40,694 nt of DNA, from IMG/VR virus record IMGVR_UViG_2874956758_000005; one strand, given 5' to 3'. Shown in pieces: positions 27,288 through 33,159 of the stretch. The position numbers were made by a program, and so were the translations under genes. The number at the start of each line of letters is the position of its first letter. Position 1 is the stretch's first letter. Below the pieces are notes generated by a model. It worked only from the letters and a program-made list of their open reading frames with translations. It did no database searches and was not told the DNA's origin. The stretch comes from a virus (lineage: Duplodnaviria; Heunggongvirae; Uroviricota; Caudoviricetes).

Positions 27288-28370
27288 TCATTTTCTCTGG
27301 CTGATCTTTACCGGATAACCATCCCGAAGATCAATTAAGTGCTCCGGTTCAGAAGCAAACCATGCATAAGATCCCCACGCCAATTCTGGTATTGCCTTTT
27401 TAAAAGGCAGAGCACTTCTGTCCATAAATGCCGTAAGGAATGCAAGATTTTTCTCGCTGAACCCAGCGTCAATAGCCAAATGAGTGAGAGTAACTTTTCG
27501 TTCCCTGTTTATAGGCCCATCTGTCGCAACTACTTCAGTGAAAACTACAAGCATGTCCGAACCCGTTCGGTCCTCTCCCAAATCAATCAAAATAATATCT
27601 GGAAGTGCTTTTGAGGCATCAATATTCAGCCCCAATGCTTTTGCCAATACATCATCCTGAGCAACAACTTTATTCCCGGATTCAGACAACCAGAGCACAG
27701 TTGGATTCTTAAGAAAATTAGGAGCAAAAACTTCGATGACGGCCTTAGCTATTGTACTTGACGGGCCCGGAGCTAAAGTTCTCTTCTCTCCATTTGGGAA
27801 AGTGACGACTACGGCATCAGCAGCAATCACTGCCCCTGATTTCAATAAACGCAACCTGGCAAGAGCGGCTTTGTTCAAATGATTTTCTTGCCAGGAACTT
27901 ATTGCACTCAGCAGCGAATCTCCTTCAAGCCCGGCATCAAAGAGTGCTGCAAAAGAGCGATTCAAACTGTAACGAGGACGAGAGGATGTGGTGGGTATAC
28001 CTTTACGCTCAACAATTGCATTGCAAGGTATTAGGCCATTTTTTATAGTTTCATCACGTATTGGCTCACGCGTATTTTCCGCATACCATGCATCAGCAGG
28101 CCTTATCTTTTGTTTAGAGAAAGTCATCTTTACCCAGCTTTCTCTGGACGCATCATCAGTAAGAGCAGCCTGCGAATCTCCCATACTTACAACCTGGCTG
28201 GGCCTTATCCATCGCCCCAGCCCCTCAACCGCACCAGCATAAAACATGACAAAAATTGTTTTTGCAGCTATTTCCCGAATTAAATATCCACGATTCTCAG
28301 TCCCTTCAGGGAAAATTAATTGTAATCTTTCCCGGATAACATTCAATGGGGGAACAACAGGCAGATTCAT
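27288..28370 (-). CDS. type II restriction endonuclease, BsuBI/PstI family (putative)
   Basis: 360-aa ORF translationally coupled (ATGA overlap) to upstream N6-adenine methyltransferase; AT-richer than flanking phage genes. Confidence 0.6.
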   Translation of the reverse strand: MNLPVVPPLNVIRERLQLIFPEGTENRGYLIREIAAKTIFVMFYAGAVEGLGRWIRPSQVVSMGDSQAALTDDASRESWVKMTFSKQKIRPADAWYAENTREPIRDETIKNGLIPCNAIVERKGIPTTSSRPRYSLNRSFAALFDAGLEGDSLLSAISSWQENHLNKAALARLRLLKSGAVIAADAVVVTFPNGEKRTLAPGPSSTIAKAVIEVFAPNFLKNPTVLWLSESGNKVVAQDDVLAKALGLNIDASKALPDIILIDLGEDRTGSDMLVVFTEVVATDGPINRERKVTLTHLAIDAGFSEKNLAFLTAFMDRSALPFKKAIPELAWGSYAWFASEPEHLIDLRDGYPVKISQRK

Positions 28371-30199
28371 GCAATCATCACTCCATAGAAACCAGCGATA
28401 GTTCTCTCAATAATCCGTCTGTGGACGCCAGCATCAATTAACGATTGAATCTCCATCACCTGCTCCAGAGAAGGCAACGGGATTGAATTCAATTCATAGG
28501 CCGAAACAGCAACACTTCCGCTTATACACCTGAACGCCCGATCGACAACATGCGAATTAAGTAGCATATCAATAACATCAGGGCGAACCGCAGAGAACAA
28601 TCCGTTTGAATATACAATATTAATATGGTTTTCAACTACTACGCCACCAGTTTCATCTATAAATCCCTGAGGTAAAATTGCCGCTAAAATCCTTCTGTCC
28701 TGTTCCTTCGATGTTGTCCGCTGAACAAGCACACATTCAGATTTTGTCACAAGGAAACCCTGTTGTGGGGTTATATCGATATAGGGAACATGATTTTTTC
28801 TGTCTGCACTAAAACGAAAACCAGCTGAAGTTATTGATTCCGCCCAGACTAATGGGTAGCTATTTTTTCCTTTCGTCGTACGCAACTGCGACTTAAATCG
28901 ATTCCAGACTAACTGACCTGTAGAGACTGAGTATCCCAGATCAGCTAAACGCGTAGACATCTGTTTTAATACATTAAGAAAACAGGCATCATCTTTAACG
29001 CGTGGCAAAAGCCACGTTGCTCCACCTTTTTCTATATCAACATTACCTATTTTCTCAATTTTTGCTTTGTTCAACCCCTTAGGGACAAGTGAGGATACCT
29101 GGGCCCGAACTTTATGTTCTCCCGCCTTGAATGCTGTCAACATTGTTTCCTGGAGAACATCGTCAAAGACCCCATCCCTGTCAGCGACGAAATCAAGGGC
29201 ATACGGAGTAGTTTTTTCGGTCAAAAGGGTTCGCAGCGCGGTGAAATACTGCCCACCAAGAAAAGAAGTTGGCGTAAGAAATGCAATAACTCCTGTTTTC
29301 TCTTTAACCATGCGAACAGCTAAGTCGGTGAACAATCCATATAGATTTGCATGACCAAATAACGAACGAGAATATTTTTCTCTCGTTTTAATATCGAGAG
29401 TGACACGTCCGTAAGGCGGATTCCCTACCACAAGATCATAACCAGAAAATTTATCTTGCTGAAGCGCATCAGCAACAATAATTGTATCTTCAGGCAATCT
29501 ACGTTTTACCTTTACACATAGTGGCATTAGTACAGATTCGAGCAATACCAAACTCATCCAAGCCGCAAATGGATCGATTTCTATCCCCTTTAAACGACGA
29601 CTGATTCTCCTCAACATCCATTCAGGGGAAGACCCCTTGTCTTTTTTTAACATTCGAATGGCTACTGGTGCCAAAAATGCACCGCCACCACACGCAGGAT
29701 CAATAACCGATGCATGAGAAAAATCAACACCAGACTTTTCAGCCAGGTCCAAGAGACGCGCTACCAAAGGTGGGGGGGTATAGTAAGCCCCCAATTCCGA
29801 ACGGTAAGCGGATGGCAGCATTACCGTATAAATTGACCCAATCAGATATCCAGCGTCCTCCGCCGGAAATTGAGCAATAAGCTCACCTGTTCGTTCAGCG
29901 AGCTCGCGTGCATCACATGGAATGTCTTCTATGTAAACAGTGTGCGGTACTGCCCTCATTTTAATGCTGCTTTTTTGCTTTTTTGCAAGGGTATCCCAAT
30001 ATGCAGCTACGATGCTGAAGCAGTATGAGCGGGCATGCATCAACCTTGACTGCCCGGTTTTGTAATTGCCCGCATAACCTTTGGCCATGGCTTTACAAGT
30101 TTGATATCTTTCCAGATTAGAAAACTCATTATCTGTAAAAAAATCAAAATGTTGCACATTCATAATGTAAAATCCTAATGTATCAAACATGCGGGCCAT
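28367..30199 (-). CDS. N6-adenine DNA methyltransferase (Eco57I/PstI-type, gamma-class)
   Basis: 610-aa ORF with AdoMet motif I VIDPACGGGAFL followed by catalytic motif IV VVGNPPYGR; start could be ATG 30199 or 30163. Confidence 0.8.
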   Translation of the reverse strand: MARMFDTLGFYIMNVQHFDFFTDNEFSNLERYQTCKAMAKGYAGNYKTGQSRLMHARSYCFSIVAAYWDTLAKKQKSSIKMRAVPHTVYIEDIPCDARELAERTGELIAQFPAEDAGYLIGSIYTVMLPSAYRSELGAYYTPPPLVARLLDLAEKSGVDFSHASVIDPACGGGAFLAPVAIRMLKKDKGSSPEWMLRRISRRLKGIEIDPFAAWMSLVLLESVLMPLCVKVKRRLPEDTIIVADALQQDKFSGYDLVVGNPPYGRVTLDIKTREKYSRSLFGHANLYGLFTDLAVRMVKEKTGVIAFLTPTSFLGGQYFTALRTLLTEKTTPYALDFVADRDGVFDDVLQETMLTAFKAGEHKVRAQVSSLVPKGLNKAKIEKIGNVDIEKGGATWLLPRVKDDACFLNVLKQMSTRLADLGYSVSTGQLVWNRFKSQLRTTKGKNSYPLVWAESITSAGFRFSADRKNHVPYIDITPQQGFLVTKSECVLVQRTTSKEQDRRILAAILPQGFIDETGGVVVENHINIVYSNGLFSAVRPDVIDMLLNSHVVDRAFRCISGSVAVSAYELNSIPLPSLEQVMEIQSLIDAGVHRRIIERTIAGFYGVMIA

Positions 30200-31264: not shown

Positions 31265-32011
31265 CTACTTAACAACCCTCGAATGGCTAACATTCGGACG
31301 CCAGCTCTCCCAGTTAAAATTCACCCAGCGCCCGCCGTTCATGACCATGCGATCCATCACCCGCTCGCCGAGAAGTGTATTCATCGCTGCATGGTTAATA
31401 TTTGTCAGCATCCCCACACCGCGTAACGATGCCGTCCGGCGATCAACAATCTGGTTCAGTACCACCTGCTCGTTTTTCGTATCCCGCTGCATGCCAATTT
31501 CATCCAGGACCAGCAGGTCAACACCACAAAGCTCCTGTAAAAATTTTTCACCGGATTTGCCGTTGTCGTAGCTCTCATGCAACACGCTCATGACATCGGA
31601 CACGGTGACGATAATCACGCTACGCCCCTTCGCCATCAGCCGGTTGCCAATCGCGGCTGCAAGATGATTTTTTCCGGTGCCGGGCTTACCGCTGAACACA
31701 AAATTCGTACAGCCTGTCATCAGTTCGTCAGCGATGGATTTCGCCTGACTCAGTGCATGTCGCTGACCGTCGTTCTGCGCCCGGTAATTCGCAAACGAAC
31801 ACTTCCGGTGCAACGGCTGGATGCCGGAGCGGTTCAGGATTTTTTCTACCCGCAACTGACGATTCTGACGGTTAATCTCCCTGCAACGCTTCCGACCTTC
31901 AGCAAGCTGCCACTCCTGCCATTCTTCCGCCGTCCGGAACAATGGTGTCACGTGCTGCGGTACCAGCCTGCGAATACGTTCCAGAGCGCCCCCTGACGCA
32001 ATGTTTTTCAT
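31265..32011 (-). CDS. DnaC-like helicase loader / replication protein (IstB-type ATPase)
   Basis: 248-aa ORF with Walker A FSGKPGTGKNHLAAAIG and Walker B DLLVLDEIG. Confidence 0.85.
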   Translation of the reverse strand: MKNIASGGALERIRRLVPQHVTPLFRTAEEWQEWQLAEGRKRCREINRQNRQLRVEKILNRSGIQPLHRKCSFANYRAQNDGQRHALSQAKSIADELMTGCTNFVFSGKPGTGKNHLAAAIGNRLMAKGRSVIIVTVSDVMSVLHESYDNGKSGEKFLQELCGVDLLVLDEIGMQRDTKNEQVVLNQIVDRRTASLRGVGMLTNINHAAMNTLLGERVMDRMVMNGGRWVNFNWESWRPNVSHSRVVK

Positions 32012-32017
32012 GGTACG

Positions 32018-33088
32018 CTACCCCCTGAACCCCGGCGGTATTTCAGTATCCGGTTCAGAAATTTGATTCACACAACGCTGGTTGTTCGTACCGCTTATCG
32101 GGAGCAACCAGGGGTTTTCAAAATTCCGGTCCGGTCCAAAAAACGTCGTCGCTCGCTGAACAAATTCCGTTCCCGTTTTCCCGGTAGCCGCCAGATATCT
32201 TGCGTAACGCCTCACGCCATCCAGCATGGCCTCTGGTGGCACCCCCTCGCGTAATCTGGCCTTCCAGGCACTGAAAGCGGATTTCTTCGGGTTTGCCCCG
32301 GCACGCAACGGGTACTCCCGCCAGACCTGTTCGAACACATCCGGATAATCCACTCGTCCCACAGACTGCCCGGTGTTTTCCGGGACTACCCGATCGGCTT
32401 CCCGCTGAATGGCGGAATCGGCTTCAGGCTGCTGCAGTTGGTGTGATTGCTCCGGACTTGCGGTCATCACCTGCTGCACAGCGCCCGAATCGGCTTTCAG
32501 CGCATACGCTGAATCGGCTTCCGGTGTCGTGCCTGCTGGCTGACCAGGATTGACGGTCTGAACATCCCCTGCCTGGTTCGTGGCGTTTTTTACGCCATGG
32601 ACCATAGTGTTTTGATCTTCTTGATCTGTATCTTTATCTGTATCTTTATCTGTCGTGACTCGTCGTGACATGTGCGTGACATATCGTGACGCGCCGTGAC
32701 AATCGCCATTTTGTTCCCGCTTTCTTTCCCTCTCTCGCTGCGCCCTCTTGCGCTCTGCAGGAGATTTTGCGGTTTGCGAAATATTGCCGTTGTCCTCTTT
32801 CAGCACCTGGCGTTTTTCCCATCCAGTGATTAAATCACCATCAAGTACCCGCCCCTGCATCGTCTGCAAAATTGAATCAATTACCTCTTCTGTCACGTCG
32901 AGCGCACTTGCCAAATCTTCTGTCGTGACATCAATGTGACCTCGCGTGACATTTCGTGACGCGCTCACCAGGAGGTGGATATACACTGCCATCACTGTTG
33001 CAATTGGCTGCCCTGACACCCTGGCAATTGTTCGCCACTTAGGGTCATTTGGCATGTCATGCCATAATCTGAGCCAGGCGTTAGCCAT
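32018..33088 (-). CDS. replication initiator (lambda O position; YdaU-like)
   Basis: Start at ATG 33088 with GAGGTG RBS; contains two iteron clusters within its coding sequence; precedes DnaC-like gene. Confidence 0.6.
   Translation of the reverse strand: MANAWLRLWHDMPNDPKWRTIARVSGQPIATVMAVYIHLLVSASRNVTRGHIDVTTEDLASALDVTEEVIDSILQTMQGRVLDGDLITGWEKRQVLKEDNGNISQTAKSPAERKRAQRERERKREQNGDCHGASRYVTHMSRRVTTDKDTDKDTDQEDQNTMVHGVKNATNQAGDVQTVNPGQPAGTTPEADSAYALKADSGAVQQVMTASPEQSHQLQQPEADSAIQREADRVVPENTGQSVGRVDYPDVFEQVWREYPLRAGANPKKSAFSAWKARLREGVPPEAMLDGVRRYARYLAATGKTGTEFVQRATTFFGPDRNFENPWLLPISGTNNQRCVNQISEPDTEIPPGFRG
32653..32700. repeat. iteron array: five CGTGAC hexamers phased every 10-11 bp (putative ori)
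   Basis: CGTGAC at 32654, 32664, 32675, 32685, 32695; preceded by tandem 12-mer ATCTGTATCTTT x2.5 (32622-32650). Confidence 0.6.
32893..32960. repeat. second iteron cluster (CGTGAC/TGTGAC) with inverted copy
   Basis: GTCACG at 32893; CGTGAC at 32924, 32945, 32955 and TGTGAC at 32935, spaced ~10 bp. Confidence 0.5.
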
Positions 33089-33159
33089 ACTCACCTCTTT
33101 TGATACCGAATCTTTTTACTCACAAATTGCCGGAAGTGATCCGGTATGAATATTGCGAG

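Follow-up and report, generated by a model that had tools for sequence, protein, structure and literature searches.

Two arrays of phased CGTGAC hexamers and an AT-rich tract, all located inside a single minus-strand gene, appear to constitute the replication origin of a lambdoid prophage, embedded in the gene for its own initiator; judging from the sequence evidence, we put the probability of this assignment at roughly 0.8. The window analyzed here is the whole 40,694-nucleotide (40.7-kb) stretch of viral DNA, to which all coordinates refer. An earlier note on this DNA had proposed a likely replication origin at this place, and this proposal is supported, given that all the sequence features to be expected of an iteron origin embedded in an initiator gene were found. 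The design of the putative origin is familiar, in that iterons and an AT-rich tract within an initiator gene are already known elsewhere; what is unusual is the presence of a second, co-evolving array in the sequence coding for a winged-helix domain, together with the existence of several natural specificity classes.

The replication initiator gene (32018..33094, minus strand) encodes a protein of 358 amino acids (aa) when read from the GTG at 33094 and of 356 aa (MANAW...) when read from the ATG at 33088. Given that the homologues start with MAN-W and that a Shine-Dalgarno sequence, AGAGGTGA, is located 5 nt upstream, the ATG at 33088 is probably the true start. The protein consists of a winged-helix N-terminal domain (hereafter N-domain, approximately residues 1-100), a basic helix (AERKRAQRERER, AERKRAQRER, encoded at 32723..32758 on the minus strand) in which K114 and Q117 (MANAW numbering) vary with the iteron class, a linker encoded by the iterons and the AT tract, and a C-terminal domain, the probable site of contact with the helicase loader. 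It matches phrog_3729, 'replication initiation protein' (E 1e-254), and close relatives bear the NCBI name 'phage replisome organizer'. In the Pfam search no family scored above the threshold: Phage_rep_O gave no match even at E <= 10, and PF09681 (Phage_rep_org_N) aligned end-to-end (residues 7-124 against positions 1-118 of 121) at 12.7 bits, below the cut-off of 23.3. Comparison of the N-domain with the replisome organizer of the Enterococcus phage phiEf11 using hhalign yielded an E-value of 1.8e-4 with a probability of only 48%, so that the sequence relatedness of the initiator to the SPP1 organizer family PF09681 is only marginal. The structure of the N-domain, modelled from a 76-sequence alignment (the single-sequence AlphaFold model, with a pLDDT of 43, was unusable), is predicted to be a winged helix closest to DnaD-NTD and to the winged-helix domains of initiators.

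The next gene (31265..32011, minus strand) encodes a DnaC-like helicase loader (Pfam IstB_IS21, E 9e-19; NCBIfam PRK12377, E 2e-150; phrog_50 'DnaC-like helicase loader'), which is the presumed partner of the C-terminal domain of the initiator, and genes for YdaT/CII-like, Cro-like and CI-like proteins are located upstream of the initiator gene. The region is the early-right operon of a lambdoid prophage and is 98% identical to the Escherichia phages Tritos, Evi and vB_EcoS-689R5. The C-terminal half of the initiator contains (P)EADSA repeats, encoded by four copies of ATCGGCTT (32393, 32417, 32489 and 32513, spanning 32393-32524), and these repeats are also present in the allele of the Stx phage 75/02. 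The C-terminal tail of the protein (EPDTEIPPGFRG, residues 335-358, encoded at 32018-32092) shows a weak match to the C-terminus of the primosomal protein DnaT (NF002770, E 1e-3), and its recurrence on homologues with unrelated middle parts suggests a short docking motif. Farther along, on the other side of the DUF977 and zinc-ribbon open reading frames (ORFs) and approximately 1 kb from the replication module, a 610-aa ORF (28367-30199, minus strand) encodes methylase domains of the Eco57I type (Pfam E 2e-13) and of the N6-adenine type (Pfam E 2e-9).

Array 1 (32654..32700) comprises five exact copies of CGTGAC on the plus strand, which start at 32654, 32664, 32675, 32685 and 32695, that is, at spacings of 10, 11, 10 and 10 bp; on the gene (minus) strand, these are five GTCACG cores that encode CH, SR and VT. 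Array 2 (32924..32960), which starts 270 bp from the start of array 1, comprises four cores on the gene strand at spacings of 10, 10 and 11 bp, namely three GTCACG (exact CGTGAC on the plus strand at 32924, 32945 and 32955) and one GTCACA (the imperfect TGTGAC at 32935-32940). It reads SRNVTRGHIDVT and codes for SRNVTRGHxDVT, an invariant loop that separates two of the helices in the winged-helix domain. An inverted copy of the core, with GTCACG on the plus strand, is located at 32892-32897, about 30 bp from array 2, and codes for part of LDVTE. The anatomy described in the earlier note, with five hexamers 10-11 bp apart, a second cluster with an inverted copy some 270 bp away and both clusters inside the initiator ORF, was therefore borne out. 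The cores are 6 bp long, lack dyad symmetry and are separated by variable spacers of 4-5 nt; because the spacing is either 10 or 11 bp, the cores between them use all three reading frames.

Nine of the 26 CGTGAC sites of the window fall within 307 bp, and CGTGAC is the sole hexamer in the window that forms a chain of at least four copies at a spacing of 9-12 bp. When codons were shuffled synonymously with the protein kept fixed (20,000 shuffles), GTCACG occurred 1.7 times on average and six times at most, compared to the eight occurrences observed, and a phased chain of five cores arose only once. Thus, both the phasing and the enrichment far exceed chance, even with the protein sequence held constant.

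The AT-rich tract, the proposed DNA unwinding element (32607..32653, minus strand), comes immediately after array 1 as the gene is read; it is purine-rich on the gene strand, contains GATAAAGATACA 12-mers and encodes the DKDTDKDTDQEDQ linker. The tandem 12-mer that had been noted beside the first array, as the source of a DKDTDKDTD linker, was confirmed as three copies at 32619-32654, encoding TTDKDTDKDTDQ. No 40-bp segment of the gene forms a less stable duplex than 32610-32650, whose dG of -44.7 compares with an average of -57.2 over the window and places it at the window's 99.97th percentile. Across 35 loci, the 40 nt following the last iteron have a mean AT content of 68%, compared with 45% for the respective loci, and are AT-richer than their locus in 34 of these, also in hosts with only 30-38% AT. 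Purines make up 73% of this stretch on the coding strand, and (C/T)AGATAAAGATA-type repeats are retained after the iterons even in hosts with only 30-38% AT. Among E. coli alleles that are 96-98% identical (including L005 and L006), the GATAAAGATACA 12-mer is present in approximately 2.5, 3.5 or 4 copies, so that the DKDT linker and the putative unwinding element both vary in length.

Directly beyond the AT tract, there is an inverted repeat with a 13-bp stem (32574..32604), which is only tentatively included in the origin. Read on the plus strand, this repeat looks like an intrinsic terminator that would be antisense to the initiator gene; in the allele of the Stx phage 75/02 it is kept with one two-sided change (GCGT..ACGC to GCGA..TCGC). 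Promoter and terminator scans yielded only chance-level hits, and no match to a DnaA box was detected within 1.4 kb of the initiator gene. A DnaA-trio-like reading of the GAT-periodic tract was rejected, given that neither its orientation nor its sequence fits the motif.

From these features, we infer that the initiator itself is the core-binding protein, that the DNA is unwound at the AT-rich tract and that the C-terminal domain of the initiator recruits the loader. Under this scheme, the N-terminal winged helix, probably together with the basic helix, would bind the GTCACG cores head-to-tail, and with the cores one helical turn apart, the initiator would form an oligomer along one face of the DNA on both arrays. 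The resulting nucleoprotein complex, possibly including a loop of the approximately 230 bp between the arrays, would melt the AT-rich, strand-asymmetric tract at 32607-32653, whereupon the C-terminal domain would bring the DnaC-like loader and the host DnaB to the opened DNA, leading to theta replication.

The earlier note likened this arrangement to ori-lambda; the likeness stands for the layout of an origin inside the initiator gene but does not extend to the initiator and the iterons themselves. The iterons of lambda are approximately 19 bp long and possess internal dyad symmetry, whereas in the window no such 19-bp dyad iterons are present and 6-bp direct cores occur every 10-11 bp in two separate arrays; furthermore, the N-domain of the window initiator has no homology to lambda O, as indicated by the lack of a Phage_rep_O match, and its partner is DnaC/IstB-like rather than lambda P. 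The features in common are the position midway in the initiator gene and the order of the elements, with the iterons first and an AT-rich tract after them, as in gene O of lambda and the Stx phages (PMC7466680), the classic division of labour of lambda O, in which the N-terminal half is tied to the origin and the C-terminal half to the loader, and the addition or removal of initiator residues by changes in iteron number (PMC7466680), in the family of the window by a 21-bp insertion.

The system in the window seems to be of the replisome-organizer (SPP1-like) kind and not a lambda O homologue. The oriL of SPP1 is likewise located within the initiator gene (gene 38), at the boundary between the N-terminal DNA-binding and C-terminal domains, and consists of about five direct repeats at approximately 11 bp (GAAACGAC/AAAGACAC, gene nt 360-405), beyond which, on the same side, lies an AT-rich tandem tract with GATAA; a helicase-loader gene is located downstream, as is the DnaC-like gene in the window. 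In SPP1, the function of oriL as an origin has been demonstrated by experiment: gp38 (G38P) binds the direct repeats and the AT-rich region is the unwinding element (PMC6316719), and theta replication has been established in vitro (PMC6316719, PMC5615212). The two systems differ in that the second origin of SPP1, oriR, is about 13 kb from oriL, whereas the second array of the window is 230 bp away, in the winged-helix coding sequence, and in that SPP1 encodes its own helicase, whereas the window encodes only a DnaC-like loader. The replisome organizer of phiEf11 is a clear member of PF09681 (E 1e-31), and its gene contains, at the same position, five GTAACG cores at a spacing of 10-12 bp and then tandem repeats of the 12-mer GATAAAGA. 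[quoted passage not shown] This iteron/12-mer stretch shows 80% DNA identity to window positions 32618-32680, although phiEf11 has a Gram-positive host and lacks a second array in the winged-helix coding part; no experimental characterization of the phiEf11 origin was found in the literature.

Short (6-8 bp) cores in two groups, as in the window, are also characteristic of the SaPI ori and of the phage P4 ori/crr, where they are bound by the element's own initiator. However, the SaPI and P4 initiators are helicase or primase fusions, the iterons are located outside the sequence coding for the DNA-binding domain of the initiator and, in SaPI, the AT-rich region lies between the two iteron sets. 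Iteron plasmids (Rep/pi/RepA) are recognized by 17-22-bp iterons and one or more DnaA boxes beside an AT-rich region, compared to the 6-bp cores of the window and the absence of such a box within 1.4 kb of the gene.

The N-domain/origin segment has matches in 2256 of 5426 complete E. coli genomes (~40%), including O157:H7 prophages, and is also present in phages and prophages of Pseudomonas, Aeromonas, Bordetella, Ralstonia and others, with the N-domain homologues amounting to at least 912 cluster representatives. This initiator N-domain was found in none of the model phages, and a literature search returned nothing on the origin, motif or specificity of the family. Both arrays occupy the same gene positions in about 27 genome loci from hosts with 34-70% GC, which include Shigella, E. 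albertii, Serratia, Rahnella, Aquitalea, Bordetella, Acidovorax, Pseudomonas, Stenotrophomonas, Castellaniella, Pseudothauera (70% GC) and Entomomonas (34% GC); in these loci, 88 of the core-to-core spacings measure 10 bp and 25 measure 11 bp. The copy number ranges from 2 to 6 in array 1 (E. coli, Pseudomonas, Aeromonas, Bordetella and other relatives) and from 3 to 6 in array 2, with an in-frame 21-bp insertion accounting for two extra array 2 iterons in the ABU 83972 and O157 alleles. In E. coli O157:H7 17B6-2 (L007, positions 837-893, compared with L002), a sixth array 1 iteron (+10 bp) shifts the frame of the initiator gene, which is annotated as a pseudogene; thus, slippage in the iteron array can inactivate a prophage replication gene. 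Two further loci, L047 (a Serratia MAG) and L049 (Pantoea), contain a gene (from position 1501) that encodes the same N-terminal 100 residues and an inserted domain of about 100 aa (YVYxV...GIS.NPWAR) without a match to any Pfam family; these loci possess phased CTACG repeats and no GTCACG-type arrays.

Comparison of the alleles from ABU 83972, O157:H7 and the phage 75/02 implies that the N-domain and the origin form one exchangeable unit. The ABU 83972 and O157:H7 alleles have the N-domain, both arrays and the AT tract in common with the window and diverge thereafter, and the gene that follows is lambda-P-like ('replication protein P'), not DnaC-like. The Stx phage 75/02 has no more than the C-terminal 160 residues in common with the window, and dnaC is its next gene, as in the window. 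The C-terminal half of the initiator goes with the type of loader, DnaC-like in the window and 75/02 and lambda-P-like in ABU 83972 and O157. The possibility that the 75/02 allele carries the same iterons was rejected on account of its different N-domain and the absence of a GTCACG array. At the equivalent position, this Shigella phage gene (L011, gene nt ~375-420) contains repeats of its own (ATCATCCTTTTATGATAGATATAAGGATGAT; inverted repeat of 9 bp) and then a (GAACAA/GAACAG)n tract, and may represent an origin of another type that is attached to a shared C-terminal module.

Both arrays could bind the initiator without both being part of the origin core. It is possible, although on the whole rather unlikely, that array 2 at least is regulatory, serving in autoregulation of the initiator, as a roadblock inside the gene or in the pairing of origins (handcuffing) that limits copy number, so that the origin core would consist of array 1 and the AT tract only. 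The distance of about 230 bp from array 2 to the AT tract, the lack of an adjacent AT-rich element of its own, the inverted copy some 30 bp away and the absence of a counterpart in phiEf11 and in SPP1 gene 38, where only the array on the side of the AT tract is found, are all compatible with such a division; yet the conservation of array 2 is no less strict than that of array 1, the two arrays have the same motif in every case, and lambda-type Stx phages need additional distal iterons for replication (PMC7466680).

The assignment of both arrays to one origin gains from the concerted change of the motif. In distant homologues, a different hexamer is found in both arrays, at the same gene positions and with the layout kept: GTAACG in loci L033, L035, L043 and L045, CGAACG(C) in L040, L042, L044, L048 and L052, and GCAACG in the Ralstonia phage Firinga. 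In L035, the inverted copy is also altered (GTTAC), together with the direct copies. Motifs were then identified de novo in 90 distinct N-domain genes, a set that includes IMG/VR contigs (a first scan of IMG/VR gave only copies that are 97-99% identical, and the collection was rescanned with a query of the CGAACG class); in 80 of these genes, one and the same non-purine hexamer was present two or more times in both arrays. Among these 90 distinct N-domains, K114/Q117 is associated with GTCACG in 27 of 28 sequences and A114/W117 with (C)GAACG(C) in 36 of 39, and the combination of V or A at position 114 with Y or F at 117 is associated with GTAACG. The two residues are located on the basic helix, which the iterons do not encode, and this co-variation makes them candidate specificity determinants. 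Treatment of the iteron classes as separate N-domain clades was dropped, with identity between classes reaching up to 83% over the remainder of the domain. Given that the classes are not cleanly monophyletic there and that one locus (L037) combines GTAACG-type residues with mostly GTCACG cores, the link between residues and motif is a suggestive correlation rather than a rule; moreover, co-variation of the iterons and the N-domain is partly expected because the two are physically linked.

A more elaborate joint reading, which we regard as doubtful, is that the region is a self-encoded, switchable recognition system. About nine cores in the two arrays would change together with residues 114 and 117 of the basic helix, and four or more origin specificities that are incompatible with one another would result (GTCACG, GTAACG, CGAACG and GCAACG); the DNA-binding domain would recognize an array that, in three frames, codes for one of its own loops; array 2 would serve a separate control function (through looping, handcuffing or replication-coupled autoregulation) and not simply supply further iterons; and the conserved GATAAAGA tract would act in loading through its specific sequence rather than through its AT content only.

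The AT tract coincides with the mosaic boundary between alleles, so that a role as a linker for module exchange is possible alongside the origin function. This coincidence would also fit a scenario in which some other protein (a host factor or a further regulator of the phage, for instance the DUF977 or YdaT/CII-like protein encoded nearby) binds the cores, perhaps for a function other than initiation, such as transcription control or recombination at mosaic joints. That scenario appears very unlikely, however, given that the neighbouring genes differ by locus (DnaC-like, lambda-P-like or DnaB helicase; YdaT present or absent) while the arrays always accompany the N-domain, that phages of related hosts bear different motif classes, and that the motif class tracks residues of the initiator itself.

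The arrays are selected as DNA. In 21 distinct, diverged genes from hosts of widely differing GC content, Val within the cores is encoded by GTC in 42 of 42 positions (23% elsewhere in the same genes), Thr by ACG in 42 of 42 (24%), Gly by GGT in 21 of 21 (20%) and Ser by TCA in 20 of 21 (14%), whereas the third positions in the spacers are free, with Arg encoded by CGA 7, CGT 6, CGC 7 and CGG 1 times. Because third codon positions are fixed in the cores and vary in the spacers, a purely protein-level repeat is ruled out, and selection at the DNA level explains the near-invariance of an apparently unstructured loop and linker in the protein. The opposite view, that the repeats matter as protein only, being a flexible linker and loop made by slippage with the DNA motif as a by-product that has no function in cis, could appeal to the near-invariance of the peptides SRNVTRGHxDVT and CHxxSRxVT in the family and to the alteration of copy number by slippage (the sixth iteron in L007 and the variable number of 12-mers), but is already largely refuted by the codon test and retains a minimal probability, given that the GTC, ACG, GGT and TCA codons are frozen in the cores (20-42 of 21-42 positions, against a background of 14-24%) next to free spacers, that one hexamer is read in three frames, that the change from GTC-ACG to GTA-ACG is synonymous and yet concerted across copies, and that AT-rich codons are retained in hosts with 62-70% GC.

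The initiator region is a clean example of DNA-level selection that outweighs codon choice within a gene. With respect to replication of this family of lambdoid prophages, the result is a precise map of a putative origin, comprising the cores, the unwinding tract and the partner loader, along with the identification of four natural specificity classes and two candidate specificity residues. The map, the classes and the residues together make origin function, the recognition of iterons by the initiator and the replicon incompatibility of co-resident prophages directly testable.
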